From a virus: a stretch of DNA of 64,000 nt. The stretch spans positions 80,308 to 144,307 of IMG/VR virus record IMGVR_UViG_3300031999_001882, one strand, 5' to 3'. Below the pieces are notes generated by a model that did no database searches, was not told the DNA's origin, and saw nothing but the letters and a program-made list of their open reading frames with translations. Both the position numbers and the translations under genes were made by a program. Each line of letters starts with the position of its first letter. The stretch's first letter is position 1. Below, piece by piece: positions 14,977 through 50,072 of this stretch.

Positions 14977-15196
14977 TGCTGGCCTCCTGTTTCTCTTTCT
15001 GTTTTCGGCGCTTCTTCATCAAGTGTGATTTGCAAACGACATGACCCTGCGCGGCCTTTTTCTTACAGAGCGGACAAAGGCCAAACCGTTTCATCGCCTC
15101 GTACATGGATTCTGAACGAGGCTTCTTACTTATTTTTTCTGAAAGTCCGATGGCACTAACCCCTTTTCGATATTGCCGATGATTGCGTCGTAGCAA
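14945..15196 (-). CDS. Small basic Cys/His protein (start uncertain)
   Basis: CPLC...C..H followed by Lys/Arg-rich tail. Confidence 0.4.
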   Translation of the reverse strand: MLRRNHRQYRKGVSAIGLSEKISKKPRSESMYEAMKRFGLCPLCKKKAAQGHVVCKSHLMKKRRKQKEKQEASNAVRSFDGGL

Positions 15197-16572
15197 CCAG
15201 CGCAGTCGAATCGGTAATTCGCCAGCCGAATCAAGTCCACGTTATCGCCGAGCTTGGCAAGCTTCTGTGCCAGCTCCACGCACACCGCACTCACATCCTT
15301 GTCGCCTTTGATAGCGGCAAATTTGCCAGCGAATTCCTTGTCCTTCGCCAGCCGAGCCATGAACGACTCCACCAAGACCTTCGCCAAGTTCGCTTCTTTG
15401 TCTGTCGAGACAACTTCCTTGACGGCGGCAGGAACTTTCACCGCGCCCATGATGGATTTCGTGCAGATGGCAAACGCCGATTCCTTCTTGGTGCGACCCT
15501 TCTGAGGCTTGAACGACTGATCGCCCATCTTGGATTCAACGCACCGATCAATCTTCCCGGCTTCCTCTTTGTCTTTTGCCAGCACGGTCAGCGTTCCTTC
15601 GCGCTTGTAATAGCCGCCAATGGCTTCACGCCAGCCAGACAATTCACGGGGTTTGACCCGATCCAGCGTCCGGGCGATGGTAGTGATGATCCTGTCGATC
15701 TTGTCCACCATCGAGTTCGAGGTCTGCAAGCCAATGTGCGCCAATGCTTTGCCGAACATCTCCGTATCCACACTCTCGCCTGTAGCCTGCGTATAGAAGC
15801 CAAAGAGCGTCGCATACTCATCCGCCATGTCCGAGAACGAGGCGTAGCGCTCTGGGAGCGCCGGGTTTACCGGACCATCGTAAACCACGGGATTTTTAAG
15901 CCATGCGCTAAGTCTGCCAAGACTGGCATCCTTCGGGCTGATTTTCTTGGCCCCATCTTCCTTATATTCCTCACCAGAAACATCCGATTCGTGCGTCTCG
16001 GACTTCACGGGCTTCTGGTCACCTTCGGGCGCGTCTGTTTTTTCCTGATTGCCTTCCTCTTTGTATTCCTCGCCGATCTTGTTATCGGTCGTGGTTTTCT
16101 GAGGAACGGCTTTCTGGTCGCCTTCCGGCTCGTCGAGAACTTTGGTCTTTTCGCCTTCGTTCTCCTTATATTCGTAGCCGATGGCCTCATCCGTGGTTCC
16201 GGGCTTGGTCTTGTTCGGCGTGCCGGGCGTAGCATCCGCCTTCTTCAACCATGCCTTTGGCCCCATCGTAATGTTGTCTGCCAGCGTGTCCTTGGCCGGA
16301 GCCTCGACGTGAGTTTTCTGAGGAACCTTTTTCTGGTCACCCTCTGGCGCATCCGTCTTATCTTGATTGTCGGTGCGCTTATATTCCCCGCCAATGGCCT
16401 CGTCAGGCTTGGTCGTCTCCTTGGGTTCTTTTTGATCGCCCTTGGGTTCGTCCATGATCTTGGGCTTATCTTCTTCTTTGTAGTTCTTCCCGATGCCGGA
16501 ATCCGTCGTGCCCGGCTTAATATCCGTGTTCTTGTCACCGGGGGTTACATCAGCCTGCTTAGTCCATTGCAT
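15130..16572 (-). CDS. Repeat-containing putative internal head protein with MQWTKQA leader
   Basis: GAGGAGG RBS; repeats of IGxxYKE...PxGDQK; leader motif recurs internally as WLKKAD. Confidence 0.65.
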   Translation of the reverse strand: MQWTKQADVTPGDKNTDIKPGTTDSGIGKNYKEEDKPKIMDEPKGDQKEPKETTKPDEAIGGEYKRTDNQDKTDAPEGDQKKVPQKTHVEAPAKDTLADNITMGPKAWLKKADATPGTPNKTKPGTTDEAIGYEYKENEGEKTKVLDEPEGDQKAVPQKTTTDNKIGEEYKEEGNQEKTDAPEGDQKPVKSETHESDVSGEEYKEDGAKKISPKDASLGRLSAWLKNPVVYDGPVNPALPERYASFSDMADEYATLFGFYTQATGESVDTEMFGKALAHIGLQTSNSMVDKIDRIITTIARTLDRVKPRELSGWREAIGGYYKREGTLTVLAKDKEEAGKIDRCVESKMGDQSFKPQKGRTKKESAFAICTKSIMGAVKVPAAVKEVVSTDKEANLAKVLVESFMARLAKDKEFAGKFAAIKGDKDVSAVCVELAQKLAKLGDNVDLIRLANYRFDCAGCYDAIIGNIEKGLVPSDFQKK

Positions 16573-16652
16573 TGTCGTCTCCTCCTCTTAAAATAACTTT
16601 GTAAGTTCGTTGATCGGAAAATCTGTTACTCTGACCCATTCAATTTCGTTTT

Positions 16653-17153
16653 TCATTGCGCCGGGACAAACTGCTCGCTCGGCGCTGGATTCTCAACAGG
16701 AGGTTCCGAAGGTACAGGCGCAATCTGGTCATATGGCACGCCCGGAATCGTCATCTCCGCGCTAGACTGAGCCGCAACAACTTCCAGCGCGGCCAGTTTC
16801 TTCCTCATCCTCCCGACATTCTTCCACAGCAAATAAATTTCGTATTTGTCGTCCTTGATCGCCTTCCAACTATCAACGTGCTTCTGATCCAAGTCCTCGG
16901 CGACTTTCTGTAAGTCAACCACCCTCACAGACAAGTCCTCCAAGGGTTTGGACAAGTCCGGGGCGATCTTGGCCGCGATCTGTGTCGTCAGCTCGTCTTT
17001 GACCCGCATCAGCCTTGAGTCATACGACGAACTGATCCACCAAAGGCCACCACCCGAAAGTACCAGAGCCGCCACCGTTCCAATAATGACCGCCATGATC
17101 CATGACGAATCGCCTTCGGGCGGCTCCGACGTAAAGGTTTGAGGATCAGCCAC
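16653..17153 (-). CDS. Single-pass membrane protein with coiled coil
   Basis: TM segment WIMAVIIGTVAALVLSGGGLWW followed by helical region. Confidence 0.6.
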   Translation of the reverse strand: MADPQTFTSEPPEGDSSWIMAVIIGTVAALVLSGGGLWWISSSYDSRLMRVKDELTTQIAAKIAPDLSKPLEDLSVRVVDLQKVAEDLDQKHVDSWKAIKDDKYEIYLLWKNVGRMRKKLAALEVVAAQSSAEMTIPGVPYDQIAPVPSEPPVENPAPSEQFVPAQ

Positions 17154-17914
17154 TATCGCCCCATGCTGTTGAAAATATCCAAGATATTTGACACGCCGCG
17201 ACTCACAGACCCGCCGATGCCGACGGGGAGTTGCAGGGTTCCCACCGACGACCCCGTGAAAGCAAATTCCAGCTTAATGATCGCCAGCAGATCATTGACG
17301 ATCTTCTGAACATTGGCAATCGCCACATTGATCTTGGCTCCGCGATCAATGTTGAGCGAGATGCCGTTGTCCGAATAATTGAAGTCGTTGATAGAGAACC
17401 CAAGATACAGGTTCATCATCGTGAATAGCTGAGCCAAATACAGGAGCATGACTTGGTAACAATGCGGAAAATTATCAGCCGTAAAATCTGTGACAGGCGG
17501 ATAAATATTGAACGCACAGATGCCCATGTTGATGCCCATGAGTAATTCCTGATCGGTGAGCGGCTGTCCGGTCATCGGGTTCACGGTCATCACAGAACCG
17601 AGCATAGAGCGGAGCTGATAGACCAGTCGCGTCTGGACAGGCGACATCTCCGGGGCGGCGGGGATCAGCGTAGTTTCTTGGCTCGCCGTCGAGTCAAAAA
17701 ACCGCACGTTGTAGAACTTATCCCCGCCGTTCCCAGAGGTCGTATCTGCAAAAGACGTGACAAAGGCTGGCGGACAATTCGCCACCCCAGACTGGATCGT
17801 ACCGATCAGCGTGTAGGGGCCGGGTTCAGCATCCGCCCGGTAGATGTGAATTTGATCGTACTGCGGCTGGCCCGCCACCATCGCTGGAATGGGCCAAGTA
17901 ATGAGTGTGCTCAA
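17153..17914 (-). CDS. Putative head-tail adaptor / neck protein with Fn3-like N-terminus
   Basis: Position downstream of MCP; LR..LG...LTDQEL and YSDNGISLNIDR segments. Confidence 0.5.
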   Translation of the reverse strand: MSTLITWPIPAMVAGQPQYDQIHIYRADAEPGPYTLIGTIQSGVANCPPAFVTSFADTTSGNGGDKFYNVRFFDSTASQETTLIPAAPEMSPVQTRLVYQLRSMLGSVMTVNPMTGQPLTDQELLMGINMGICAFNIYPPVTDFTADNFPHCYQVMLLYLAQLFTMMNLYLGFSINDFNYSDNGISLNIDRGAKINVAIANVQKIVNDLLAIIKLEFAFTGSSVGTLQLPVGIGGSVSRGVSNILDIFNSMGR

Positions 17915-19982: not shown

Positions 19983-20984
19983 TTACACGATGTCTAGTTC
20001 AACCACGCCAGCCGTGTTATGGATTCCCATTCCGATCTGTTCCCAGCCGTAGATGTCATACTGACCTTGAGGGACGTTATCGAAGATTTTGACTTCGACT
20101 TTCTTCCGCTCAGGTAGACGGCCAAGTTTGTCAGGGGTGGTAACCACGAACACTTTGTTGACAGGGTTGCGTGTGCTAACGATCAACTTCATCCCGAAGA
20201 TCGACCCAAAATATCCCGTTTCAACGACAGTGTTCAGGGTGACCTGATCTATGTCATTGGAGGGGAATTTCAGGAGGTCTGAGTAGTTCTTAGGGTTCAT
20301 CAGAACCGTGGAAGCGATGAGCTGATTCTGCGTGATGCTCCCCACCATGTCGGCCAATACGGTCTTGGTGACCGCGCTGGACGAGAATGGCGTATTCGGC
20401 GAAACTGCACTCGCCGCTTGGAGCACTCGATAGAATTCGTCATCCTCGGCAATCGCCATCGCAATCGCTACGCGCTCTTTAGCGCGGTCGAAGATTGGAT
20501 AACGACGGATTTGGATGTCCTCATACTTCACGACTTCATCAATCCCTAGAACGAACGTCGGGAATTGCACGCGACGAACATTCGTTTCAAACGTGGTCGG
20601 TGAACCCAAAGCGGCCAACTTCACCGCTCCGAATTCAGGGATGTCCACGTCATAGATCGGAAAATCTCCCTGTGGCATTTCATCCACAAGCAGAACTTTC
20701 CGGTCCACCGAAACGTAGTCCAAACGAGTTTTCAAGGGCAACTGCATGGAGTACGCCAACCGCCTGAACCCGTTAGGGCCAGACAGGATTTGCGACAGCG
20801 CATCTTCCATTTGCTGTGGCGGGACGGTCGGAAGGAGAGGCGCATTACCCGCAGAGCGAGCAAAGCCACCTGTTCCAAGCTGACCCGAACCGCCAACAGT
20901 ATTCGCCGCTTTCAGAATTTGCGCGATGAAGCGATCCTTCTGAACTGGCGATAAATCACCCATCAGGTTTTGTCCCGGTAGCAT
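19983..20984 (-). CDS. Major capsid protein (HK97 fold)
   Basis: 333 aa; position after protease/scaffold/decoration; AIAEDDEF helix, VLMNP..YSDL, GSIFGMKLIVS, WEQIGMGI.N..GV. Confidence 0.85.
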   Translation of the reverse strand: MLPGQNLMGDLSPVQKDRFIAQILKAANTVGGSGQLGTGGFARSAGNAPLLPTVPPQQMEDALSQILSGPNGFRRLAYSMQLPLKTRLDYVSVDRKVLLVDEMPQGDFPIYDVDIPEFGAVKLAALGSPTTFETNVRRVQFPTFVLGIDEVVKYEDIQIRRYPIFDRAKERVAIAMAIAEDDEFYRVLQAASAVSPNTPFSSSAVTKTVLADMVGSITQNQLIASTVLMNPKNYSDLLKFPSNDIDQVTLNTVVETGYFGSIFGMKLIVSTRNPVNKVFVVTTPDKLGRLPERKKVEVKIFDNVPQGQYDIYGWEQIGMGIHNTAGVVELDIV

Positions 20985-21542: not shown

Positions 21543-22598
21543 TTAGCCGCGATTCAGCGTGTCCTGAGTCCACAGATTCGAGAGACGTTCGACCGCGCTT
21601 CCCTGCGAGGTTTTTTCAGGACCAAGCACCACAGGGGGCACATCTCCTTCACCTTCGTCAAGACTGCTGAATGTTTCAACACCTTCGGGTTTCGGTAATC
21701 CTTCGGATTTCGGTAGTCCTGCACCAGAAACTTTTGACTGGACCTTTTCGATGACACTTTCCAGCGCGGCAAGCGCCTTGTCGTCAAGTTCGGCCAGTTC
21801 TTTGCGGCAAGCTTCAAGATCAGCTTCCTCGATACCGATTTCGGTCAGCTCATGGAGAATCGCGTCAATGGCGGTAGCCTTCTCCCTCTGAACTTCCTCC
21901 TCGGCTTTCTTCTGTAGCGCGGCCTTGGCTTCGGCGGCTTCCTTCTTTGCCGCTTCCACCGCTTTCAGGGCTTCGCCACGTTCATCGAGCGCTCTTTTCA
22001 GCAACTTCATGGGGCCGCTCAAATTTTTTGATTTGAGGTCAATGGCCTTGGTGGGTTCACCAACACCCGCCGGGTCCGGCAGACGATTGAAGAAGTCTTT
22101 GATCTTCCGGCCATGTCCCGGCACGGGAGAGATTTTGCCAGCCAAATCTCGATTGGCTTTGGCTTCTTCTTCGCTGACAGCTTCGGTCGGTCTTTCTTCC
22201 TTGCTGGCATCCTGCCGGGGCACTTCTTTTTCATTCAGCGCCCAATTCGCATAGTCAAAGTCCTTGTCGCCGGACGTGGCGATCTTTTTGAGTCCCGCTT
22301 TGACCACGGTCTTTTGCGCCGTCACCCATTTCAGGTAACCATCGAAGGTTCCACCACATTCCTTCTTAATCAGATCACAGATTTGTTCAGGTTCAATGAC
22401 CTCGGACTGCTTGCCCTTGACAATCAATTTCTGAATCTCAACGGGCACGACATCTGCGGCCTTCACGACCTTGAGCTTCCCGGCCCCTTCTCTTGCAAGG
22501 AAAAAGGAACGCAGGAACGAATCACGGGCGTTCGAGCCTTCACGAATCATGTATTTCAGCGAGAATTCCATTGTAGATAGCCTCCTATTGGCATTCAT
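21543..22598 (-). CDS. Putative scaffolding protein
   Basis: Charged coiled-coil C-terminal half; lies between protease and MCP. Confidence 0.55.
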   Translation of the reverse strand: MNANRRLSTMEFSLKYMIREGSNARDSFLRSFFLAREGAGKLKVVKAADVVPVEIQKLIVKGKQSEVIEPEQICDLIKKECGGTFDGYLKWVTAQKTVVKAGLKKIATSGDKDFDYANWALNEKEVPRQDASKEERPTEAVSEEEAKANRDLAGKISPVPGHGRKIKDFFNRLPDPAGVGEPTKAIDLKSKNLSGPMKLLKRALDERGEALKAVEAAKKEAAEAKAALQKKAEEEVQREKATAIDAILHELTEIGIEEADLEACRKELAELDDKALAALESVIEKVQSKVSGAGLPKSEGLPKPEGVETFSSLDEGEGDVPPVVLGPEKTSQGSAVERLSNLWTQDTLNRG

Positions 22599-24270
22599 AT
22601 TTCGGCGTTTCCGCCGTGTCAGATTTCCTATCTAAGCCCAGCGACTCCCGCCAATAGGCGATCTTCTGCGTTTCAGGCATCTCAGTTTTCGTGCGTTCGA
22701 GCAAGACTTGGGTCGCTTGTCCGCCCCGGTAGAGCCGGAGCAAATTGGTTTGTGCATCTGCCTTGAGAGTCAGGCCCGGTCCGATTTCGATGCCGATTTC
22801 TTCCGGCTTCGGCTGGATCACGGCATAGAGCGCCTTCAAATAGGCCCCTTGGCGCGTGTCGCCCTCAAGAGACTGCCGAACGGCCTTGTCCAAGAGAATG
22901 GTTGCCATGACCTGCGGACCATAGACCAGCTCCGGGGATACCATCGGCGGGCAGGCGGTTTCCGGCGGATTGGCGATCTCCTCCTGCATCCTCTGGACTT
23001 CCTGCTGGGCATCTTGGCGGTGCTCTTGGACAGCTTGGCTGACTTCGTTGATGATCGGAAGCTGGACTTGGGCCATCATCTCGGCCAACAGCACGTCCAC
23101 CTGCTTCATCACCTCTTGGGACACTAGCCCGTCGATCTTGTTCTTGATCGCGTCCTTGATCGTTTCGTCGATCTTGGTGGAAATGGGCTTGGTTTCTTCC
23201 TGAATCTGGTCCAAAAGCGGGGTTGGAGGCACTTCGCCCACCAGCGCATCGGCCTTTACCACCTTGGAAATGGGGGCGATATCCGCCGGGTTGAAGGAAG
23301 CCGGGCCACGGCGCTCTTTGCGGCGCTTTTCCACGAAATCCCCGCCCCCGGTCATGCTGGGGGCGGCATCCATGACCTTTTTGGGGTTGGCCGCGCCGCT
23401 ATCCACGGCGGGGTTGCCCTGAAAGGTCGAAGGCGACTGAGCGTTGAGCGCGGACTTATCCAGCGCAGAGCGGAGCGCCACGCGCTCCTCTGGCGACAGA
23501 TTGGACAGCGCCATGTCCAGCGTGCACTTCCCGTCCGGGCATCCGGCGGCCTTGGCCTTCCTGTTCTGGTACTGGACGGCATGGGTCAAAAGGTTCTTCT
23601 GGACCGAAGCAAACACTTCAAAGACGTGCGCCTCGATGTCGGCGGGCTGGGCCACGCCGGACAGCTCCGAGAAGGTCACTTTGCGGTTGATCTCATAGGC
23701 TTTGACCCCATCCGACTGCGTGCGGCCCTTGCAGTAGGTGGGCGACATAGGGTTCATATGGGCGCACAGCTCATGCTGGTTGCGGGCGATGTTGCGGCAG
23801 ATCGAGCACTCCGCTTCTTCCACGACGCATCCCATCGACACGCTGTTGAGGATTCCGGCTTCGATCTGGCGGGCGATGTCTTGATAAGCTTTCCGGTCTA
23901 CAGCGACAAGACACTCAATGTATTTGCCTTCGGGATACCACACCGAGTCCAAGATGATGCCCTTGGCCTTCTCGATGGAGTCCGAGTCATGCTCGATGTA
24001 GAAACCCTTGCCCACGAAGGACTTATAGGAAGCCTCAAGCTCTTTGTCCTCAAAGAAATCCCCGTTGCCATTGGCGATGTTGGCCGTGATCGAGCGAGCG
24101 CGGAAATAAACAAAATTATCGGGGTCATAGTCGAAGGCTTCCGCCGGGAGGAAATCGCTCTTTTTAAGGAGCGTGGATTTCTTCACGACTTCCTGCCATG
24201 TCCATGTCTTGTTGTCGTTCTGCTTTAAGATGTCCGAAATCTCGATGGTCGCTTTTCTGTAAAACATCAA
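22585..24270 (-). CDS. Prohead (capsid maturation) protease with C-terminal extension
   Basis: NGNGDFF, FVGK..YIEH, GIILD, SVSMGC, FSELSGVAQPAD: HK97/herpes-type protease motifs with CxxC...C.H insert. Confidence 0.8.
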   Translation of the reverse strand: MMFYRKATIEISDILKQNDNKTWTWQEVVKKSTLLKKSDFLPAEAFDYDPDNFVYFRARSITANIANGNGDFFEDKELEASYKSFVGKGFYIEHDSDSIEKAKGIILDSVWYPEGKYIECLVAVDRKAYQDIARQIEAGILNSVSMGCVVEEAECSICRNIARNQHELCAHMNPMSPTYCKGRTQSDGVKAYEINRKVTFSELSGVAQPADIEAHVFEVFASVQKNLLTHAVQYQNRKAKAAGCPDGKCTLDMALSNLSPEERVALRSALDKSALNAQSPSTFQGNPAVDSGAANPKKVMDAAPSMTGGGDFVEKRRKERRGPASFNPADIAPISKVVKADALVGEVPPTPLLDQIQEETKPISTKIDETIKDAIKNKIDGLVSQEVMKQVDVLLAEMMAQVQLPIINEVSQAVQEHRQDAQQEVQRMQEEIANPPETACPPMVSPELVYGPQVMATILLDKAVRQSLEGDTRQGAYLKALYAVIQPKPEEIGIEIGPGLTLKADAQTNLLRLYRGGQATQVLLERTKTEMPETQKIAYWRESLGLDRKSDTAETPKYECQ

Positions 24271-25081: not shown

Positions 25082-26962
25082 CTATACCGCCGGGCCTTCC
25101 GCGCCCGGAGTCACAGGTAACTTCTCTTTTTCTTCCGGTGCGCCAGCGCCCGGCTTGGCTTCTTCGGGCTTACCCGGAGGCGGCCCAAGGCTCGGACCCT
25201 TCATCGGTCCGCCGCCTGCGGGCGCTTTGGTATCCATCAAATCTTTGAGTGGCTTGGGGCGCGAAGGCTTTTCCTCGACAGGCTTGGAATCTTCCGATGC
25301 CTTTTCCTTCATGGCGATGTCTTTCAAGATGTCCTTCATCTTGTCGCCGCGCAGGAAGCGGTCGCGCAACTCTTTGTTCTGCTCATCCGTGAGATACGCC
25401 TTCTTGAGTTCCTGCCAATCAGGATCGAGGTAAGTGGCTTCCTCTGTCTCGAACTGCTTGGTGACGATCTTAGATGACAGCCCAAAGACATCGTTGATGA
25501 TCTCCTGCGGAATGCGGCCATCGGTTCGCATTCGGAGCAACATCTCCTGCTCCTGCGTGTTGTTGAGCAAATTGAGCTTCTGCCAAATGAAGGTCGGCAG
25601 ATAATAGCGGTCGTCCGGCACATTCTCTTTGAAGTTGTTGCGAACCTTGTGGTCGATCTCGGCCTTGGTTCGGCGGATGAGCTTCTGCTCACGGGCGATG
25701 GGCAGGAAAATCTTGTATTTGAAAATCTTTTCGATCTCGGCCCGCTCGGTGATATAGCGATGGAACAGCATTTTGAGGTTGACCGTCTGCCCGGCGTAGC
25801 TCGGCGCTTCGCCGCCCAACAGCGCTTCGTTGGCGAACAGCCCGGTCATAATGCGCTTGCCCACCCAATCGAACCACGGAATGAGGTTTTCAATCTTGTC
25901 CTTGGTCCCGACATAATCCACCTGCACGCCAAAGTGGTAGATGATGTTGTAGTCCGGGTCATTCGCCGCGCTGACCAAAAGCTGTTTGAACTTGTCAAAA
26001 TGCTTCTTCGACGGAATCCAGCCCTTCGCCTCGGAACCGAGCTTGAAAATCTTGATCGGGAACATATGCCGATCTACGAAGGTGTATTGGAGATACCGAA
26101 GCTTGTCCTCGAACAGCAAATCCTTGAGCACACGCTTGACCAAGGACAGGCCGCGCAGGGTGTATTTCGATGTCCGGTTAGCGAAGTGGATCACCCGGTT
26201 GGCATCGAGCATATAGGGTTTCCCCCGACCCACAGACTCCACGAAATGCTTAGGCATCAGGCCCACGATGGCCCGGTCCACCGGGTCATTGGAGCCGACG
26301 ACTTTCTGCAACTCAGGATCGGGCAGGAGGAAATAGGCGGCGGAGTTCGAGACATAGGTGCGCTTGATGTCGATGTATTCCGGTGGATACTGGTTCCACT
26401 CGGACCATTCGAGATTGTTCTTGTCCCACATCCCATACCACATCGACTCGCCCAAAAGATGCTTGTCACGGAGCATCCAGACCGCCATTTGCAGGAGGTC
26501 CAGCTTTTCCTTGATATAGTTGAACTTGGATTTTACGGATGGCTCATCGACATGAAGCTCGAAGTCGGAGAGCGGAAAGGTCGAATGGATGTCAATGATC
26601 GAGCCGACGTAAGGCTGAAATTTGTAGTAGTGACGTAGCCGCTTATTGACCTCTTTGAGATTGTCCTCTGGGAACAGGAGGAGAACGGTATCCCAAAGCG
26701 GATCAACATAGAGAAGCGGAGTGCGTACTGTGTCTTGGGTGGAGGAGGACTGAAACAACTGCTGAAAGTCAGCTTGGCGCTTAAAGCCTTTTCCGTCACC
26801 CAACTGGCCGCCGCGCCGTGTGCCTGTGCCATCGGCTTGCGCGATCTCCGCCAGAGCTTCGCCCGCCGACTCCAACAGCTCGGACTGCTGGGCAGAGCGA
26901 TGGAAGGCCCCGGAGAAGCCTACTGGCTCGAATGATTCGTCTGGATTACTATTTTTCGCCAT
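25082..26962 (-). CDS. Portal protein
   Basis: 626 aa upstream of protease; PYVGSIID.H..FPLS, LLGE, IHF......RG.SL helical pattern; Pro-rich tail. Confidence 0.8.
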   Translation of the reverse strand: MAKNSNPDESFEPVGFSGAFHRSAQQSELLESAGEALAEIAQADGTGTRRGGQLGDGKGFKRQADFQQLFQSSSTQDTVRTPLLYVDPLWDTVLLLFPEDNLKEVNKRLRHYYKFQPYVGSIIDIHSTFPLSDFELHVDEPSVKSKFNYIKEKLDLLQMAVWMLRDKHLLGESMWYGMWDKNNLEWSEWNQYPPEYIDIKRTYVSNSAAYFLLPDPELQKVVGSNDPVDRAIVGLMPKHFVESVGRGKPYMLDANRVIHFANRTSKYTLRGLSLVKRVLKDLLFEDKLRYLQYTFVDRHMFPIKIFKLGSEAKGWIPSKKHFDKFKQLLVSAANDPDYNIIYHFGVQVDYVGTKDKIENLIPWFDWVGKRIMTGLFANEALLGGEAPSYAGQTVNLKMLFHRYITERAEIEKIFKYKIFLPIAREQKLIRRTKAEIDHKVRNNFKENVPDDRYYLPTFIWQKLNLLNNTQEQEMLLRMRTDGRIPQEIINDVFGLSSKIVTKQFETEEATYLDPDWQELKKAYLTDEQNKELRDRFLRGDKMKDILKDIAMKEKASEDSKPVEEKPSRPKPLKDLMDTKAPAGGGPMKGPSLGPPPGKPEEAKPGAGAPEEKEKLPVTPGAEGPAV

Positions 26963-30554: not shown

Positions 30555-30645
30555 GATTCCTCTGGTTCCACTTTTCCGCCGCCCACCACCAAGCTCCCAG
30601 CACCCACGACAACGGCACAGCAATGATCTTGAGCAACAGCCTCAT
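30547..30645 (-). CDS. 32-aa Trp-rich hydrophobic peptide (not in ORF track)
   Basis: MRLLLKIIAVPLSWVLGAWWWAAEKWNQRNRD; ATGA overlap with upstream stop. Confidence 0.5.
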   Translation of the reverse strand: MRLLLKIIAVPLSWVLGAWWWAAEKWNQRNRD

Positions 30646-30827
30646 CCTTGTGTTTGGAGAGGTTTGACGGTGACCCGGTACTCTTGGCCCCTAAAGCTGA
30701 CCGTACCCTCGGCTCCATCTGCAAGATAGTTCGAGTTCGTAAGCCCACCACCAACTCCTTCTGCCAAAGCGTCAAGGCATTCCCTGACGTGCGTCTCCTG
30801 AATCTCGGCCACTTTGGTCCAGCTCAT
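30642..30827 (-). CDS. Small protein with MSWTKVA leader
   Basis: GGAGGGG RBS before ATG 30827; shared leader. Confidence 0.6.
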   Translation of the reverse strand: MSWTKVAEIQETHVRECLDALAEGVGGGLTNSNYLADGAEGTVSFRGQEYRVTVKPLQTQG

Positions 30828-35804: not shown

Positions 35805-36032
35805 CTACCCGTTGCGTTGCCCGTTACTGCTTGCCACGGCTCTTAACGCCTTCAAAGTATCTTCATCCAGACGTGATCCTAAGCTGAAATCCAACCTCTC
35901 TGGCCGGGCTTGCGCCGGGCGCTCTTGTCTTACAAACGCCTGCGGCTGACGACGAACGACCTTCTGCATCGGCCTTACGGCCTGAGTCTTTCGATCTAAG
36001 AGTTCTACAGCCCGGTCGAGACTTCCCATCAT
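35805..36032 (-). CDS. Small hypothetical protein
   Basis: ATGA overlap with giant ORF stop. Confidence 0.55.
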   Translation of the reverse strand: MMGSLDRAVELLDRKTQAVRPMQKVVRRQPQAFVRQERPAQARPERLDFSLGSRLDEDTLKALRAVASSNGQRNG

Positions 36033-39000
36033 TTCGTTGGTTCGAGTTCTTTCTCAGCGATAGTAAATTGCGATCCAGTACGCTGGCCGTAAGAATCCAG
36101 CGTAATCACTTCATAGCTTTTGTCCGCAGAGATCGCAGAAGCCACACGCTTGATGATCTCGGCTTTGTCACCGGACACCAACCAGACGTGAGAGCCTTCC
36201 GCGAAGCGATACCCGGCGTTCTTGAAGAAGTCGGCTGTCGATTGAAGCTTCATAGAGAGCTTTTTGCGGCGAAGCTTCTTGGATTCTTTGTCCAGCTCCC
36301 ACGCGCTTCCTACAAGGTCCGAGGACTTGAACTGATCGAAGTAGCGGGCCGCACGCTGGGCGGCTTGCGCTGGCGGCAGATCGGACTTGGTAGCGATCTG
36401 ATCCAAGAGCGCAGTAACGGCGGCTTTGACATCGCCGCCTCTCAGGTAAGCTTCTTCGCCAGCCTTCCAGACCTTTGAAATGTCCATCATATTGATCTGG
36501 TAGCCATACACCGCATCTTGAATGAGGTGCGCCATCTCATCCTTTTGCTTGCGCGTAATCTTGCCGGGAACTGCCGCCTGTTTCTCCACAGATGTGTCGC
36601 CGCCGATAATCCCGTTCTCAACAAACTCGTCCTTCAATTCAGGGAACCGCTCGGCGAGCTGTTCAAAATAAGCCCCCCATTCAGCGAGTTCGCCGTAGCT
36701 GAGGTTCTGCTGACTCACCCAATTCTGCCAGCCTATCGCATAATCTCTGGCTTCTTGGGCAGTCTTGAGGACAGCATAGGGAGCCTTCTTGAGTTCTTTG
36801 GCCGCCGTGACTTCGGCAGTCGCAGGAGTGGCTTCGGCTTCCTTGGCCTTCTCCTCTTTGCGCTTGGCCCGGTCCTCCTGCTGTTCCTTGAGCCGCTTCT
36901 CCATCTTCTCAAGCGCGTCCACGGTTGACGCGATCTCTGAGGGGTCGGCTTTGTCCACATCCAAATCCTTGAGCTTGCGCCGGAGCGACTTCACCTGATC
37001 CGACAATCCTGATTCGACTTCCATGCTGGCCTCCTTTAACTCGAACGGTTCTTCTCCTGCATAGGTGAAGATGGTTTTGCCAGTCTCCGCCAAGTCCTCT
37101 AAAGGAGAACGCAACTCATACTGCGGATACCACCAAAACTTTGGCTTGCTTCCGAAATCAATCTCTCCGTTGTCATCCAAGCTTCCATCGGAGATGATGA
37201 GCGAATCAGTCAAAGCGCCGATCTGCTCTGGCCGAACTAACATATAGCCGTTGCCAAACATCGGCTCAAGATAATCCAGCAAACGCGAATCGCTCTGATC
37301 CTCAACATCCTGTCGGATTTCCTCTAAATCATCACCCGTTGCGGTGATCTCAAGATTCTTATTTGGCAGAACCTTCCAGCTTATACCGCCGCGAGCCTTC
37401 TTCTCCATTGACCCAAACGCACTCCCGGTCATAATACCCAGCGCCGCCTGCACGCCTCCGGCATCTGCCCCGGCCCCGATAAGCGCCTGCGAGATGATGT
37501 GAAGCATCACCTTGCCTTGGCTCTTATACTGGTCCAAGACCCCCATGTAATCGCCGTAGTGCCCCTTGGTGGTGGCGGGCTTGCTCTCGATGTGCTTGAC
37601 CATCTCGATGATGTCCGGGTCTTTCGACAGCATATCAATGGCCTGCTTAATCTTCTGCTCTCTGGACACTTCCGGCCCGCCGAAGCGATCTAAGCTGGCC
37701 GCCATCTCCATCGGCTCCTCCGGTTGTGCTTTGGCCTTGCCGATTTCCTCCGCATTGGCATCTTGCGCCTGCTGGATCGCGGCCTTGATTCCGGCCTCGT
37801 CGCCCTCAGTCGCATCACTCAAATAGCGGCGAATCTGGGTCTGAATCTTGGAGGTGGTCACCGAATACTTCTGCGTGTTGAAGAAGGTTTCTCCGGTGTT
37901 GCTTCGGAACACGATGGGGGTCGCATAGTTCACCAGCGCCCAGCCACCCGGATACTTCTGGATGGTCAAGTGCTCTGTGCCCCAGCGATCCCGCTTGTCT
38001 TTGGGGAACGAATCGTGCGCGAACATCTCAATAACCTGCTCGTTGGAGGCGGCCTCAACCTTCATTGCGGCGGTCGGCTTGCCCGGCCACTCATCGCCTT
38101 CGGACATCGCCACGCAGTTCGCGTGCGCGAAAGAAGTCGGCATCACTTCCCCCGGCTCAGATTTGGAATCCACGATCATATCCCCGGCCTCGATTGCGTT
38201 GCCGCATATCGGGCACGTCTCTCCGATCTCTCCTTCTTCGGCAGATCGCGCCTCTAGCTTGGAATAACACTCGTTACACAACGCTTCGTTAGGGTCATCG
38301 CCTTCGCCCCAGCCTTCCGGCATCTCCACGGGCTTCCCGCATTGAGGACACGACACGCGCTGAGCGGCCTTCTGCTTGCGCCAGCTCTTGAACTCCTCGC
38401 TGTTGCGAACTTCGTCGCTTTCCTTCTTCTCCGGCGACTCGCGCCACTTCTTGTCCTCGTCTTGGAGCCGCTTCACGTCCTTCTGATTCTTGGGATTGTG
38501 TTCCAGAGGAGGCCAGCCAGAAGCGTCAACCTTGGTCGGCATATTGTCCGGGTCACAGCCGCATTCGTTGACGATATCATTCATCTTGCCGCAGGTCGGG
38601 CACTTGTGAATCCCGGCTTTGCGGTCATGCTTCTCGGCCAGCTCCTTCTCGAAATCCGCCAGCTCCTTACAATCCTTGCACCAGCGCGAGCCTTTCTCGG
38701 CATCGGCCTTGTGACAGAGCGTGCACTTCTGGGCGGAGGTCACCACTTGAAGGCCGCCGTGGTCATCCAAGAACCAGATGGTCGGATAGAAATTGCCCTG
38801 ATCCACCGCTTTGACGGCGGCAATCAGCTCGTCCCACTCCGGCGACTCGGCGAGCTTCTTACCGCTCTGATAAGCGGCGTACATCCCGCCAAGCTGTCCT
38901 TCGGTCTGGATCACGATATCGTCCTCGGCAGGCTCCTGCATCTCCTCCGAGTCAAACTCCTCCACCTCGGCTTCGGCTGTGCGCTTGCTGGCTTTCTTCT

Positions 39001-42000
39001 CTGATTTCTTTTGTTGCAGGATGGCTTCTGCTTCCTTGATTCGCTTGGCAACATACGCCTGCGTGCCCTTATCGGTCACATCGTTCATGCGACTCATCCA
39101 GTTATCAATGAGCGCTTCCAGCTCGGCTACTGATTTATCCTTGAGATCGCTGGCTGTGCGCTTGCTGGCGATGGTGTCTTTCCAATAAACCCAAGCGACC
39201 GTCACCTTGTCATTCTCCACTTCGTCGATCTTGACGGCATAACCCGCCGAAGCATAAGCGCCCTTCACGCCGTTAAAGCCCAGCTTCGCCAGATCACCAT
39301 TGGGTTCCACAACCTCGAACTCGCCCAGATCAAAGATGTTCCCGTCATACCGGAAGAAGTCGCCCTCTCCGTTCTCGACGTAATCCAGCTCCTTCTTCTC
39401 CTCGTCAGTCAGTTGAGAATAATCCATGAGCGGAACAGTCTGCTCGTTCTTAACCACCAATCCAGTCGGCCCCGCTTGGTCATCGGCCTTCTTTTCAAGG
39501 GGTGGTTTCCGGTGCTTAACCGGGATATAGTGATGTTCGTCATCCAAGCATTTGTCGCATTGTCCACGTCGTTCGCGTGTCTCGTTGTCGTGATTTTTGA
39601 GCGGGTGTCTGCATACGGCACATGGCGGGGCATCAACATTCTCTTTGAGCGGAGCATCAGCCTTGCGTCTGGCGGCCTGCGTCGGCGGCTTGCCCTGTAG
39701 CTCGGCAATGCCTGTGCTGATCCCTTCGCCCACGCCACGGTCGTACTCCTCCCACAGCTCATCAGCATTCTCGGCCTTGTTAAAGGCGCTGGCAAGAAAC
39801 TCGAAGGGCGTATATTGCCGACCATTCTGCTCGGCCTCAAACGCTTCGTCGGCGATCTTTTCCACGTCGAGATTGCCTTGGGCATCTTTATAGCCTTGGA
39901 ATTCGCCCTTGTTCGTGATGATGATGTTGAATCCCTCGTCATAGCCCATGCGGTACGCTTCATCCGGCATGATCGGTTCTTCTGCGCCCCGGCGACCCAG
40001 CGCCGAATAGAGACGCACCTTGGCTTCTTTGGAGAGCGGCTTGAGCGAGGACTGCTTGGTGGGTGGAATGTCGCCTTCTTCCAGATGCTCGATCTCGCCG
40101 CTCTCGGTGAACGCCAGATCATTGGCCTCCGCATCCTCTTTGATGTATTCGTCGGACTGCTGGTACTCAAGCTCGGCATAGCCGTCCTTCTCAAGCTGAC
40201 TACACAACTCCTGACGAACCTCGTCGATATACTGGATGAACTCGACGTACAGCTTCTCAAATTCCTCCGTGGACATCCCGGCTTCTGCGGCCAGATCATC
40301 CATGCTTCCGGGGGTATTGTCCTCCACCTTGACGGTGTATTTGTGGGAGTAATGATGGTCGATGCTCTTGAGGTCGATGTAAAGCGACTCATAGAACTTG
40401 GCGAAGATATTGAACCGCTCGTTCGGGTGCGCTTGCAGGAACTTCGCCACGTCCATGTGCGCGGTAAAGCTCACGCCGGAACCCTGCGTCGAGCTGAGAT
40501 CGTAATTCACCTTCGGGTTCACAAACCCGTGCTCTTGCAAATCGCTCTCGGCATTCTCTTTCCAGAAATCAACGTCCGCCATTTCGTAATACTTATAGCG
40601 CACCTTGTCCTTGGCCTTCTCATCCAGATCATCGAAGGTAAAGAGATCGACCTTCCGGTAGAAGGTGTGCTTGGGCTTGCGCGGCTCGTCGGCAAATCGC
40701 TTCATAAAGCTCTCCTTGGCGGCGAGGCGCGAAGCCTCTTTGCTGATATTCTTGGCATAGGCCATCGCTTCTTCGCGTGAATCAAATGTCTTGTTGCCAG
40801 CGCCGGACTTATCCCGCTCGCCGCCGTGCTGAATGCCATCCACCAGCACCATGAACTTTCCGCCCAAAGCTTCCTTGATCGAAACATTCTCAGGCATCGA
40901 CGACTTCCTTGTGCGCCGCCCGACGCGCTGTTCCGTCGGATTCACATAGACATTGTTATCCTGATCCTTGAAGAAGTCAGCGCCAAAAGAATCGAACTGG
41001 CCGCCGTTACGTTCATAGGGATCGAGAAACACCAGCTTGAAGTCCGTCGCCAAATCGCTGGCCGACATATAAAGGAACTCTGTGTTCGGCTCCTCGTCCT
41101 CTTTAAGCGGCTCGCCCGTCAGCGCTTGGTAATCCTCTTTGCTCCAATCGTTCGCATAGACCCGGAGAACCATCTCTGCCGTCTCGACTTCTCCACCCGG
41201 CGGGACCAGCATATAGACTCGATGGCCGCTCTGCATATCGGTGTCGGTCAAAAGAGTCCAGCCCGTGCGAATCTCTCCGATGTTCTCTACCGCATTCCAG
41301 TCCACCTGAGTCTTGAGCGCTTCGCCATCGCCTTGAGTCAGCTCGGCGGGCAATGTCTTGAGCATTGCCACGGCTTCCGCGCCACTACCTTCCGCATATT
41401 CGGTCAGGGTAGCCGAGTAATTCACCTCGGTCCGCGCCCAATCCAAGAGGAATGCCAACTGCTCATCAGTCAGCGCGGCGGCTTTGCGGCTCACCTTCTT
41501 AGCTTCAAACTCTTTGCGGTGTTCTTTCTCCTGCGAGATGGCGTGGTCCAGCACTTCCTTGAGCGCTGGGCTGGCATCTTCCTTCTGCCCGCGATACTCG
41601 TCGATAGCGGCCTGCTCCTGCTCCACATCGCGCTTGACGATCTCAGCATCCCGGTCGGCTTTGCGCTTGGACGCGAAGGGCATCTTCATCTGCGCGGGGT
41701 TCTCTGGCGGTGTCAGCTCTTGTTTGATCGCTTGGTGAACGCCGGAGTCCTCGGCATACTTCAACAGGTCTTTGGCATCCATAAAAGCTTCACCGTTGTT
41801 TTCAAAGGACGACTCCACAGCTTCCCATAAGAGTTGAAGCACGCGCTCGGAAGGCTCATACGCTTCGAGTGCTTCCTGCTTCTCCGCCGGAAGCTCCTTC
41901 GCCAAATCTTCCTTGACCCATTTCAGGGCTTCATCCTTACCCCATACGTCAAACGATTCCCGGTATTCCTGCTGTTCTGCATTCGTAAGAGCTTCCTCAT

Positions 42001-43363
42001 CAAGCACCGGATAATCGGCCATGTCGCGCTCAATGCCTTCGGCAATCGCTACCTTGTCGGCGGCATCTTTATGGACCAGCAAGAATTCAACCCAGCCCAC
42101 CGCCCAATGACCTGACTTTGCCACGACCACGCCATTGCCTTCGCCGCCCAAAGCTTTGAGCGCCGCATCGAAATTGGTTTTCTCAAGCGCTTCGGAGTCC
42201 CGGTTCTGCGTGAGCACGACATAATAATCGGAGTAGTCGTCGCCCATATAATTCTCGGCAGGCTTCCACAGTTCGAGCGCCTTGCGCTTTAAGCTGGCCG
42301 TGTCATAACGACCCTTGATGGGCGGCGCGGTCTTTTTGCCTGTGCCTTTGCAATAGGGGCACGTCTCCAAAGGCCCGGCTCCGGTGCGTGACTTCCCATA
42401 ACCAGCGCAATACTCACACTCTGCTCCGTCTGCCGCCTTCGCTGTCATGCCGCCCTCCAAATAGACGTTGCCATCGTCGCCAACAATAGCATCGCAGTTC
42501 CCGAAGGCTCTGGCAATGTCGCTCAGCTTCTCACCCACATCGCCCAGCCCGCGATCCCAGAAGCCCGCGCCATGCCCACAGCGCGTCAGCCAGAAGTCAT
42601 GGCCCGCCTGCTCATCGTCAATCTCATTTAAGAGATCGCCTGCTTGCTGGCGAAACGCCGCGCAATCGGCCTTGGCCTTCTCGATGCTCTCCGGGGCAAT
42701 ATCCTCGATCCCGAAGTTCTGATCCAGAGGTTCGCCGCCCGTCTCCGGGTCAGAGTTGTCGTTCGACGACCATAGCGCCGCTTCGAGATAGGCCGACACA
42801 AAGGGATCAAGCCCTGCGGCTTGCCGAGATGTCTTGGCCTGCTCATCGACCAGCCGCTTGTTGTGCTCGCCCTGCATATGCTCGAACGACTCCTCAGATT
42901 CATTTAAGGGTTCGCCCTTGGCTCGCTTGGCTTTGATCTTGGCTTCCATCTCCTCCTGCCACGCTACAGTCCCGAACTGAGCCGCCGACTTGGTTGCGGG
43001 CTTAACCTTGGCCCAGCACGCATCACACAGCGCCCCAAAATTCTGTTCGTTGAACATCCGCTCTCTGGCAGGCTGGCCGTCGTTCTTGCATTGGCGAGCC
43101 GCATCCCGGTTCCCGAAGTCCCGCTCTAAGATGCCCGTCTCGCAGGAGTCGCACAGCCCAGCCGCCGCGCCATAGGTATTGATGATGGTGTCCTTGCCAC
43201 ACTTCTTACACTTGCCTTGGGCGGCAGAGCGCTTGGAAGCCGCGCACGCGCAGGTTCCCCCGCAGGCGCACGTCTCCGACTCTTGACGAATTTTTGAAGG
43301 AGCTTTTTTGTCTTTTGGCTCCACGATATCTGTCCAATGATTTTTCAATACCGCTTTATCCAT
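36029..43363 (-). CDS. Giant (2444 aa) multidomain polyprotein-like protein
   Basis: More than 20 small acidic domains and Zn fingers separated by basic [KR]-x-A linkers; AAGGAG RBS. Confidence 0.85.
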   Translation of the reverse strand: MDKAVLKNHWTDIVEPKDKKAPSKIRQESETCACGGTCACAASKRSAAQGKCKKCGKDTIINTYGAAAGLCDSCETGILERDFGNRDAARQCKNDGQPARERMFNEQNFGALCDACWAKVKPATKSAAQFGTVAWQEEMEAKIKAKRAKGEPLNESEESFEHMQGEHNKRLVDEQAKTSRQAAGLDPFVSAYLEAALWSSNDNSDPETGGEPLDQNFGIEDIAPESIEKAKADCAAFRQQAGDLLNEIDDEQAGHDFWLTRCGHGAGFWDRGLGDVGEKLSDIARAFGNCDAIVGDDGNVYLEGGMTAKAADGAECEYCAGYGKSRTGAGPLETCPYCKGTGKKTAPPIKGRYDTASLKRKALELWKPAENYMGDDYSDYYVVLTQNRDSEALEKTNFDAALKALGGEGNGVVVAKSGHWAVGWVEFLLVHKDAADKVAIAEGIERDMADYPVLDEEALTNAEQQEYRESFDVWGKDEALKWVKEDLAKELPAEKQEALEAYEPSERVLQLLWEAVESSFENNGEAFMDAKDLLKYAEDSGVHQAIKQELTPPENPAQMKMPFASKRKADRDAEIVKRDVEQEQAAIDEYRGQKEDASPALKEVLDHAISQEKEHRKEFEAKKVSRKAAALTDEQLAFLLDWARTEVNYSATLTEYAEGSGAEAVAMLKTLPAELTQGDGEALKTQVDWNAVENIGEIRTGWTLLTDTDMQSGHRVYMLVPPGGEVETAEMVLRVYANDWSKEDYQALTGEPLKEDEEPNTEFLYMSASDLATDFKLVFLDPYERNGGQFDSFGADFFKDQDNNVYVNPTEQRVGRRTRKSSMPENVSIKEALGGKFMVLVDGIQHGGERDKSGAGNKTFDSREEAMAYAKNISKEASRLAAKESFMKRFADEPRKPKHTFYRKVDLFTFDDLDEKAKDKVRYKYYEMADVDFWKENAESDLQEHGFVNPKVNYDLSSTQGSGVSFTAHMDVAKFLQAHPNERFNIFAKFYESLYIDLKSIDHHYSHKYTVKVEDNTPGSMDDLAAEAGMSTEEFEKLYVEFIQYIDEVRQELCSQLEKDGYAELEYQQSDEYIKEDAEANDLAFTESGEIEHLEEGDIPPTKQSSLKPLSKEAKVRLYSALGRRGAEEPIMPDEAYRMGYDEGFNIIITNKGEFQGYKDAQGNLDVEKIADEAFEAEQNGRQYTPFEFLASAFNKAENADELWEEYDRGVGEGISTGIAELQGKPPTQAARRKADAPLKENVDAPPCAVCRHPLKNHDNETRERRGQCDKCLDDEHHYIPVKHRKPPLEKKADDQAGPTGLVVKNEQTVPLMDYSQLTDEEKKELDYVENGEGDFFRYDGNIFDLGEFEVVEPNGDLAKLGFNGVKGAYASAGYAVKIDEVENDKVTVAWVYWKDTIASKRTASDLKDKSVAELEALIDNWMSRMNDVTDKGTQAYVAKRIKEAEAILQQKKSEKKASKRTAEAEVEEFDSEEMQEPAEDDIVIQTEGQLGGMYAAYQSGKKLAESPEWDELIAAVKAVDQGNFYPTIWFLDDHGGLQVVTSAQKCTLCHKADAEKGSRWCKDCKELADFEKELAEKHDRKAGIHKCPTCGKMNDIVNECGCDPDNMPTKVDASGWPPLEHNPKNQKDVKRLQDEDKKWRESPEKKESDEVRNSEEFKSWRKQKAAQRVSCPQCGKPVEMPEGWGEGDDPNEALCNECYSKLEARSAEEGEIGETCPICGNAIEAGDMIVDSKSEPGEVMPTSFAHANCVAMSEGDEWPGKPTAAMKVEAASNEQVIEMFAHDSFPKDKRDRWGTEHLTIQKYPGGWALVNYATPIVFRSNTGETFFNTQKYSVTTSKIQTQIRRYLSDATEGDEAGIKAAIQQAQDANAEEIGKAKAQPEEPMEMAASLDRFGGPEVSREQKIKQAIDMLSKDPDIIEMVKHIESKPATTKGHYGDYMGVLDQYKSQGKVMLHIISQALIGAGADAGGVQAALGIMTGSAFGSMEKKARGGISWKVLPNKNLEITATGDDLEEIRQDVEDQSDSRLLDYLEPMFGNGYMLVRPEQIGALTDSLIISDGSLDDNGEIDFGSKPKFWWYPQYELRSPLEDLAETGKTIFTYAGEEPFELKEASMEVESGLSDQVKSLRRKLKDLDVDKADPSEIASTVDALEKMEKRLKEQQEDRAKRKEEKAKEAEATPATAEVTAAKELKKAPYAVLKTAQEARDYAIGWQNWVSQQNLSYGELAEWGAYFEQLAERFPELKDEFVENGIIGGDTSVEKQAAVPGKITRKQKDEMAHLIQDAVYGYQINMMDISKVWKAGEEAYLRGGDVKAAVTALLDQIATKSDLPPAQAAQRAARYFDQFKSSDLVGSAWELDKESKKLRRKKLSMKLQSTADFFKNAGYRFAEGSHVWLVSGDKAEIIKRVASAISADKSYEVITLDSYGQRTGSQFTIAEKELEPTK

Positions 43364-49451: not shown

Positions 49452-49461
49452 CGCCGCCCCC

Positions 49462-49569
49462 TCATCCCAGCCCGCGCATAATCGTGCTCATCAGCGCACG
49501 CCGGAAGGCAACGACCGCAAGAGCAATCCCCAGCCCAATGCCTCCGATGACGCACAGAGCAAAGCTCAT
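49462..49569 (-). CDS. 35-aa membrane peptide (not in ORF track)
   Basis: MSFALCVIGGIGLGIALAVVAFRR...; ATGA overlap. Confidence 0.5.
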   Translation of the reverse strand: MSFALCVIGGIGLGIALAVVAFRRALMSTIMRGLG

Positions 49570-49634
49570 TGAACCACCATCGTGAACACCTTGGCTCCTA
49601 TCATCGCTACCCAGATGATTGCCCAGAGCGGCAT
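49566..49634 (-). CDS. 22-aa hydrophobic peptide (not in ORF track)
   Basis: MPLWAIIWVAMIGAKVFTMVVQ; TAATG and ATGA overlaps on both sides. Confidence 0.4.
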   Translation of the reverse strand: MPLWAIIWVAMIGAKVFTMVVQ

Positions 49635-49804
49635 TACCGGATGCCTCGCACGTCGCTTGCCAAGCTTTCCAGCTCGACCGCGATCCCTTCCGTGTCGCCC
49701 GGTTCCATCGCCCCGCCTTCCAACTGGTCAGCGATCATCCTCAACTGCTGAGCCATCTGCTTGAGAAAAGGCGCGTTCGGTGCGGCTGTTTTGGTCCAAG
49801 ACAT
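49634..49804 (-). CDS. Small protein with MSWTKTA leader (start revised)
   Basis: TAAGGAG RBS before ATG 49804. Confidence 0.65.
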   Translation of the reverse strand: MSWTKTAAPNAPFLKQMAQQLRMIADQLEGGAMEPGDTEGIAVELESLASDVRGIR

Positions 49805-49814
49805 AATGTTCTCC

Positions 49815-50072
49815 TTATTGAGTGTAGCCAATAGCGATCTCGCCTACGGTCACGGCGGCTTCATCGCCCTCGGCATATTTTTTGTTCACAATGATGATCT
49901 TCTTACCGCCGTGCTTAATGTAGAAATGCGGAACCGGATCAAAAGAGAAATCAATGTCCTTCGGCTTAAACAAGGACTCCAATGGCTTTCTCAGGCTCAC
50001 CAAGGTTTTGCCCTCAGCGAGCTTGGCGATCTGATCCAGCACAGGGTCGGCGGCAATCTTTGTCCAGCTCAT
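49815..50072 (-). CDS. Small protein with MSWTKIA leader
   Basis: GGAGG RBS; shared leader. Confidence 0.7.
   Translation of the reverse strand: MSWTKIAADPVLDQIAKLAEGKTLVSLRKPLESLFKPKDIDFSFDPVPHFYIKHGGKKIIIVNKKYAEGDEAAVTVGEIAIGYTQ

Follow-up and report, generated by a model that had tools for sequence, protein, structure and literature searches.

Unrelated small proteins of an uncultured phage share a W-T-K-x-A start that resembles the N-terminus of its head-maturation protease

Six tagged genes and their counterparts in related phages

The window analyzed here is the whole stretch of 64,000 nucleotides that spans positions 80,308 to 144,307 of IMG/VR virus record IMGVR_UViG_3300031999_001882, i.e., the final 64 kb of a linear record of 144,307 bp that derives from an uncultured phage and is estimated to be 83% complete. 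Genes in the window run on the minus strand nearly throughout, and six of them begin with a short peptide of the form M-(S/Q)-W-T-K-x-A, hereafter called the tag. A sequence-only reading of the window had singled out these six starts; all of them are indeed present where it had placed them, and the good ribosome-binding site that it had ascribed to each was found as well (GGAG or GAGG, 5-9 nt upstream). The longest of the six genes, all of which lie on the minus strand, encodes a 480-aa protein (15130..16572) beginning MQWTKQA, whose W3, K5, and A7 stay unchanged in 10 orthologues with as little as 40% identity. The remaining five encode a 61-aa ORFan (30642..30827; MSWTKVA), acidic ORFans of 80 aa (33741..33983; MSWTKTA) and 66 aa (33980..34180; MWTKTA), an acidic 56-aa protein (49634..49804; MSWTKTA) with an orthologue in the relative G001 (see below) that begins MSWTKQAE, and an 85-aa protein (49815..50072; MSWTKIA). 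The start of the 80-aa gene overlaps the stop of the 66-aa tagged gene that precedes it, and the latter occupies the slot downstream of a conserved gene encoding a 464-aa protein.

In the called frame of all six tagged open reading frames (ORFs), the G+C content is lowest at the second codon position, as it is in the large genes. Based on the residue frequencies of this genome (195 genes), 0.002 W-T-K-x-A N-termini would be expected, and six were seen (Poisson P = 1.1e-19); no further N-terminal copy of the tag was found in the remaining 80 kb of the record. None of the tagged proteins matched a Pfam or PHROG family, making all of them ORFans, and they are mostly acidic (pI 4-5). Nor is the tag followed by a hydrophobic core of at least 7 residues after a basic N-region, the arrangement of a Sec, Tat, or lipoprotein signal; what follows are polar linkers rich in Pro, Ala, Asp, and Glu. 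Similarity between the tagged proteins had been said to stop right after the Ala. When the tag-stripped bodies were compared by BLAST, this was the case for most pairs, but not for the proteins starting at 33983, 34180, and 49804: the first two form a weakly related tandem pair of paralogues (30% identity over 60 aa, E 0.004), and each of them is weakly similar to the third.

Relatives were sought with the portal protein in IMG/VR, which yielded G001 (90 kb), G002 (147 kb), and G003 (19 kb) at a portal identity of 70-81%, and by a metagenome scan that supplied one more, the 9.2-kb contig L027; beyond these three IMG/VR relatives and one new metagenome contig, no additional ones were found. The census of the tag over these five related genomes and contigs reached 26 ORFs, of which 20 lie outside this phage. 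In L027, nine small tagged genes flank orthologues of the 464-aa gene and of a gene for a 367-aa protein, and they start with MSWTRQAS, MSWTKIAE, MWTRIAI, MWTRTAI, MWTRVAG, MSWTKVSG, MSWTRHAL, MSWTRVSG, and MSWTKQAM. Over the 26 ORFs, the Trp is without exception (26/26) and is preceded by Ser (12), by the start Met (10, including one GTG start), or by Gln (4); it is followed by Thr in 24 cases, by Lys (16) or Arg (10), by a variable residue, and by Ala (23) or Ser (3). The residue after the Ala is variable: Gln occurs there once, and Glu is not fixed. The consensus of the tag reads M-(S/Q/N)-W-T-[KR]-x-[AS]. A literature search returned no paper describing such a tag, and a codon-specific scan of IMG/VR for GGAG...ATGAGCTGGACNAAR...GC gave, apart from G001, single and unrelated matches only.

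The view that the tag is conserved at the level of the peptide, already put forward from the window alone, is borne out by the larger set, as every degenerate codon of the tag varies across the 26 ORFs. All four Thr codons and all four Ala codons are in use, Ser is encoded by AGC, AGT, and TCT, and the basic residue by AAA, AAG, AGA, AGG, CGA, and CGT. Because all degenerate codons vary, selection acts on the peptide and not on the DNA. Moreover, BLAST connects the tag-stripped bodies into just five small orthologue sets, and the bodies therefore represent about 20 unrelated families. These observations bear directly on the idea that the shared start is a relic of descent, a recombination joint, or an RNA element of translation initiation, with no function as a peptide. 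Such an origin would fit with the weak paralogy of the proteins at 33983, 34180, and 49804 and with the strong ribosome-binding site at every tagged start, but it does not sit well with the scrambling of synonymous sites (AGC versus TCT; AAR versus CGN versus AGR), with the lack of any identical-nucleotide run long enough for recombination or RNA pairing, or with about 20 unrelated bodies bearing the tag. It also does not account for in-frame copies that lie inside proteins, devoid of a ribosome-binding site (see below). With internal copies conserved, codons scrambled, and 20 unrelated bodies involved, we regard an RNA element or plain ancestry as very improbable.

Gain, loss, and internal copies of the tag

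The tag can be present or absent on otherwise similar proteins. The 85-aa protein (start at 50072) has an 81% identical homologue, P0012, that begins MINKKVLED, as well as more remote homologues with other N-termini, and with so close a homologue lacking it, the tag is an add-on. Likewise, the orthologue in G002 of one tagged G001 gene begins MWVQVV. Another G001 gene carries tags in tandem, namely MDWTRTT and, after 12 residues, AWVRSAS, the second of which aligns with the N-terminal MWVRTAQ of the orthologue in G002. The tag is thus modular, and can be both gained and lost. Two looser variants had also been suggested in the window, and they fared differently. MGWVVIA, which starts a 236-aa protein (13142..13852, minus strand), is a decayed tag, since the orthologues begin MSWTTVS (G001) and M..MPWTAIE (G002). 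MWVKCS (start at 14822) is probably no tag, its N-terminus not being conserved among its orthologues.

The sequence-only reading had described an N-terminal leader, and on this point it has to be revised: the tag is not strictly N-terminal, because conserved internal copies exist. In the 480-aa protein, a second copy, W-L-K-K-A (residues 108-112; 16237..16251, minus strand), heads an internal repeat; the site is kept in all three genomes, and W108, K110, and A112 are invariant in the ten orthologues. A third, partial copy, W-L-K (residues 224-226; 15895..15903, minus strand), precedes the folded C-terminal half, and W224, L225, and K226 are again invariant in the ten-orthologue alignment. Residues 1-246 of this protein are predicted to be disordered and contain Lys/Glu/Pro-rich repeats, while the C-terminal half is helical. 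No sequence match in Pfam, PHROG, or the PDB was obtained for the protein, a protein atlas gave nothing usable, and a fold search returned helical matches only, all with Z < 6.

The internal copies argue against a role of the tag in turnover, either as a ClpX-type N-terminal motif or as another degron. A degron would suit small, regulator-like ORFans, and the tag resembles ClpX N-motif-1 (polar-T/hydrophobic-hydrophobic-basic-hydrophobic). However, a signal of this type requires a free N-terminus, which conserved internal copies do not have, the genome encodes no ClpP, and a degron would be unlikely on a head protease and inside capsid proteins, where related motifs are found (see below). Given the conserved internal copies, we consider a degron improbable.

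Copies of the tag also occur in giant proteins. A mosaic multi-domain protein of 2444 aa (36029..43363, minus strand) consists of modules that are reshuffled among the relatives, such that module order differs between the G000, G001, and G002 versions, and its PHROG domain matches include phrog_1915, 5162, and 20867; Pfam, run at E <= 0.01 on the protein as a whole, gave no family. The giant proteins of G001 and G002 contain ..ASWTKVAKDWETC.. and ..GWTKTSKDWETC.., a second giant of G001 contains ..ASWTRTAQEPG.., and in these giants S-W-T-[KR]-x-A sits at module starts. More generally, nearly every module of the mosaics opens with basic-x-Ala and continues with A, D, S, G, or E. In an unbiased count of gapped 3-mers over three mosaics, KR.A (7 versus 0.94 expected), KK.A (7 versus 1.5), and K.AS (6 versus 0.77) ranked at the top, in G002 second only to the zinc-ribbon motif CP.C, and their copies fall at module boundaries. 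The pattern [TSK][KR].A[ASGDE], which was picked post hoc, is found 12, 9, and 10 times in the three mosaics, where 2.7, 2.0, and 1.7 would be expected, and the genome-wide excess of [KR][KR].A[ADSGE] stems almost wholly from the two giants. A small version of the same arrangement is seen in G003 (L022; 4187-4507, minus strand), where a 106-aa protein is made up of two zinc-ribbon modules with a tag before each (MWTRLAE at the start and ..SSWTKTAAP.. internally). Its gene sits between the portal and protease genes, a slot that is occupied in T4 by the core genes 67 and 68.

In light of these headers, the motif might be nothing but a cut site that separates modules, used by the head protease or by another one, with the N-terminal copies being leftovers of polyproteins that have no addressing function. 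The basic-x-Ala at almost every module start of the mosaic giants, the two-module fusion in G003 with one tag before each module, and the fact that a gene can persist after losing its tag are all in line with this. On the other hand, a useless leftover of seven residues would not be expected to stay invariant while the bodies diverge beyond recognition, and in L027 the nine neighbouring, free-standing genes have all retained it. We find this explanation quite unlikely.

The head protease, head-protein sites, and huge phages

Apart from the tagged genes, only one gene in the four genomes starts with aromatic-x-[KR]-x-[AS], and this is the gene for the head-maturation protease (561 aa; 22585..24270, minus strand; phrog_18299, E 1.8e-22). 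The protease opens with MMFYRKAT (24247-24270), a peptide built like the tag, and the relatives have MFIRRAT or MFYRKAA at this place. A search of 1.84 billion representatives with a profile of the N-terminal domain of the protease found 4,556 homologues (E <= 0.001), many of which reach 1,800-2,700 aa. Statistics on the N-terminus were taken from the best 150 of these 4,556, of which 147 start with Met. A start of the form M.{0,3}-hydrophobic-x-[KR]-x-[AST] was present in 102 of the 147 (69%), compared to 4.8% of internal windows of the same proteases and approximately 3-4% of the other genes of three phages. Among the 102, the basic residue is Lys in 84 cases, and the last residue is Ala in 93. 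Unrelated accessory genes copy the conserved N-terminus of the head protease, an observation that is new and that stands without any functional claim.

The best PDB match of the protease model is T4 gp21 (5jbl; Foldseek probability 1.0, E 7.6e-3, target TM 0.5), a match that is weak because it comes from a low-confidence model; the next fold match is the pseudorabies (herpesvirus) protease 4v07. T4 gp21 itself removes its nine N-terminal residues, which obstruct its catalytic centre (PMC9958956). By analogy, we infer that the first 7-8 residues of the protease family could be its own substrate-like propeptide, of which the cargo tag would be the Trp version. Apart from its N-terminus, the protease has a conserved Cys/His insertion at about residues 150-175 (C-S-x-C ... 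C-x-H), which is longer in the homologues of huge phages and probably forms a zinc ribbon within the protease fold.

The protease gene belongs to a head gene cluster that further comprises, all on the minus strand, the portal protein (25082..26962; PHROG portal, E 3e-48; 27% identical to the portal of phage G), a candidate scaffolding protein of 351 aa (21543..22598; a role suggested by gene position and by a helical sequence rich in Lys, Glu, and Ala), and the major capsid protein (19983..20984), with a weak cement-like protein at 21018-21488. Upstream of the head genes lie the 2444-aa protein, a 1436-aa protein, and many small ORFans, and the replication genes are found further up. We searched the head proteins for hydrophobic-x-[KR]-x-[AS] sites that are conserved in all orthologues. 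The portal has two, FHRSA (residue 20) and FKRQA (residue 60), both ahead of its core, which begins at approximately residue 87. The capsid protein has three, ILKAA, FARSA, and FRRLA, at residues 23, 41, and 73, and these surround residue 57, the first position covered by the PHROG capsid profile. Scaffold and protease have four conserved five-residue sites each. Both T4 and SPN3US strip N-terminal propeptides from capsid protein or portal (PMC9958956; PMC10052503), and the positions of the sites in portal and capsid protein are those expected of such propeptides. The scaffold also ends, in all four genomes, with a conserved segment, ..S-[NQ]-L-W-[TA]-x-D-T-[LI].., that has W-T in common with the tag and could be a shell-binding end.

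A related tag was found in huge phages akin to phage G. The exact DNA pattern of M-N-W-Y-K-x-A-Q occurs in 37 IMG/VR stretches, and in three of four such huge-phage genomes, M-x-W-x-K-x-[AS] starts number 13, 5, and 6, versus 0-1 in a reversed control; as a protein motif, MNWYK was not found in any paper by literature search. The portals of these phages are 26-29% identical to that of our phage (E 1e-29 to 1e-40) and the proteases 30-37% (E about 1e-21). Their proteases head ORFs of 1,835-2,003 aa that start with MAIYKTAT, MSFMKKAK, and MGFTKRAS, and in two of three of these giant protease-scaffold ORFs, K.A is enriched (31 versus 11.4 and 30 versus 12.1 expected). The two groups thus have the M-x-W-x-K-x-[AS] skeleton, related portals and proteases, and the form of the protease N-terminus in common. 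They differ in that the present clade has Thr in place of Tyr (24/26), allows Arg at the Lys position, and lacks the constant Gln behind the Ala; in that our phage has a 144-kb genome with separate genes for protease (561 aa) and scaffold (351 aa); and in that the tagged proteins are small ORFans here, whereas in the huge phages they are recognizable enzymes. Since the tag skeletons, portals, and proteases are related, the W-T-[KR] tag is a dialect of the same system as the M-N-W-Y-K tag.

In the huge phages, the tagged genes are scattered over the genome and do not lie beside the head genes. This is one of three observations that fit with another role of the tag, namely as a docking motif for some other common partner, for instance a phage adaptor or a host hub (RNA polymerase, ribosome, or chaperone). 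The tag would then unite small host-takeover proteins without any involvement of the capsid. The other two observations are that the tags sit on small, acidic ORFans which evolve fast and are encoded in variable regions, and that the conserved internal copies behave like linear motifs. Docking would, however, leave unexplained why the head protease family has the same motif at its N-terminus and why portal and capsid protein have the motif near their N-termini. In addition, homologues of the conserved 464-aa neighbour, which we examined as a receptor for the tag, were found neither in phage G nor in any of four W-Y-K phages, and because the W-Y-K phages lack it, this protein is no shared receptor. 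Docking is therefore, in our opinion, unlikely, but it deserves to be taken seriously.

A putative address for head cargo and its known parallels

The sequence-only reading had interpreted the shared start as a T4-like head-loading tag of a different sequence. The part of this proposal that stands is that the tag is modular, is carried by unrelated proteins around the head genes, and is tied in silico to the prohead protease; loading itself is a prediction. On balance, we lean towards the tag being an address-and-cleavage label for head cargo that is recognized by the protease. Under such a scheme, the tag, a Trp form of the conserved peptide at the start of the phage's own head-maturation protease, would constitute a recognition and cleavage motif with a hydrophobic or aromatic residue at P5, Lys or Arg at P3, and Ala or Ser at P1. 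The head-assembly core would bind a tagged protein, which would be taken up into the prohead and trimmed there by cleavage after the Ala, and the trimmed protein would be delivered into the host together with the DNA. A candidate substrate peptide would be MSWTKTAAPNAP. A more far-reaching version, which we put forward only tentatively and think somewhat less likely than not to be correct in full, is that a protease N-terminus that blocks the active site and is self-cleaved has been copied, in its Trp form, onto all intended capsid cargo, be it separate genes or modules of polyproteins.

Several results weigh against an address for head cargo. The mostly acidic ORFan nature of the tagged proteins would equally fit early host-takeover proteins, and promoter and terminator scans around the tagged genes stayed at background level and gave no expression timing. 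Both structure models are of low confidence, with pLDDT values of 52-54 (53.6 for the protease), which leaves the gp21 match weak. In the head proteins, the five-residue motif was seen 18 times versus about 10 expected, a modest excess for a motif that was defined post hoc, and protease, scaffold, portal, and capsid protein of this phage contain no excess of K.A or [KR].A. [ST]K.A, which was considered as a genome-wide cleavage motif, had to be dropped, with 27 copies seen versus 27.4 expected. The scattered location of the tagged genes in the huge phages belongs here too. Finally, phage G encodes a related protease, gp19, with 43% identity in the core, but M-x-W-x-K-x-[AS] starts are missing from its genome. 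With the large terminase of phage G as a query, no match was obtained in this genome (83% complete).

The proposed scheme parallels that of the T4 internal proteins, although with another sequence and another cutting rule. In T4, a capsid-targeting sequence (CTS) is present on the internal proteins IPII and IPIII, and also on IPI and Alt, and is removed by gp21 (Mullaney and Black, 1996, as cited in PMC9958956). Both the CTS and the present tag are short N-terminal peptides on unrelated proteins, and in both cases a protease of the same (gp21/assemblin) fold family is encoded; the present tag may likewise end in the motif that its protease cuts, and a motif of that form stands at the N-terminus of the protease. 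However, the tagged proteins of T4 are injected head cargo, whereas the tag described here is known from sequence alone, and the CTS, MKTYQEFIAE (approximately 10 residues), and the W-T-K-x-A tag (7 residues) are unrelated in sequence. T4 cuts at L/I-x-Glu, as opposed to the Lys or Arg at P3 and Ala at P1 predicted here, and the CTS is found on a handful of genes, compared to at least 26 genes of about 20 families, plus polyprotein-like giants, for the tag.

Other known systems resemble this one in part. Short peptides also suffice for placement inside an HK97-fold shell in the case of encapsulin cargo peptides and the capsid-targeting tail of the HK97 protease, but these mostly sit at the C-terminus, attach directly to the shell protein, and are not known to be cleaved. 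In the phiKZ-like phage SPN3US, many head proteins, as well as ejection proteins, lose N-terminal propeptides to the gp21-like protease gp245 at an A-x-E motif (PMC10052503); portal and capsid protein are among the proteins with propeptides, but these are 20-254 residues long, end in Glu, and share no tag. Polyvalent proteins of phages and conjugative elements, of which the phage ones are predicted to be packaged and injected (Iyer et al., 2017; PMC5512222), resemble the 2444-aa protein in consisting of shuffled small domains and in adjoining virion genes. In the 2444-aa protein, whole-protein Pfam analysis revealed none of the named polyvalent-associated domains, and a term search of PMC5512222 found neither the basic-x-Ala module header nor its likeness to a free-standing tag.

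If the tag is indeed an address for head cargo, it would be a second capsid address code after that of T4, independent of it and different in both sequence and cutting rule, and its carrier would be a protease family that runs to thousands of members among uncultured phages. The injected repertoire, which would likely comprise counter-defence and takeover factors of the first minute of infection, could then be read from sequence. Such a code would also explain how giant mosaics are assembled from small modules and broken down into them, and a handle of seven residues would be enough to load foreign cargo into the HK97-fold shells of these phages.

Among the neighbours of the tagged genes, the 464-aa gene (34338-35732, minus strand) is the most conserved, with 54-84% identity over five genomes, and in every relative a tagged gene is found directly downstream of it or, in G001, within about 2 kb. 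Approximately 30 residues from its variable N-terminus, the protein has a conserved junction, K-[RQK]-x-A-S-A-R-D-W, that resembles the linker motif of the mosaics. It had no match in Pfam, PHROG, or the PDB, and a lead from the protein atlas to HATPase/HisKin-conflict, with a score of 0.80-0.82, was discarded; PF22561 matches nothing in the genome. The 367-aa protein (32477-33580, minus strand) matches the C-terminal 300 residues of the 'tail fiber protein' phrog_4492 (E 4e-52); the gene itself, however, stands upstream of the portal gene amid the tagged ones, and G003 has three paralogues in a row. Genes for HNH endonucleases are located amid the tagged and giant genes at 29895-30623 (minus strand; phrog_374, E 8e-53) and 43356-43838 (minus strand; phrog_99, E 6e-26).

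In phage G (L034; NC_023719.1, 4754-18253), genes in the portal area share a leader of their own, x-R-[LI]-K-K (LSRIKKI, LTRLKKI, MKKSRLKKV, LKRLIKK, and MSKKISRLKKTA), which is weak, with 11 forward versus 5 control occurrences over the whole genome. Lastly, an internal MWTKTA at genome position 14381 of our record proved to be a chance match within a GT-A glycosyltransferase, the orthologues of which have MWSPT or MWSET. This glycosyltransferase (273 aa; genome 13965-14786, minus strand) is encoded outside the window and is paralogous to the first domain of an 818-aa glycosyltransferase that is encoded inside it (6581-9037).

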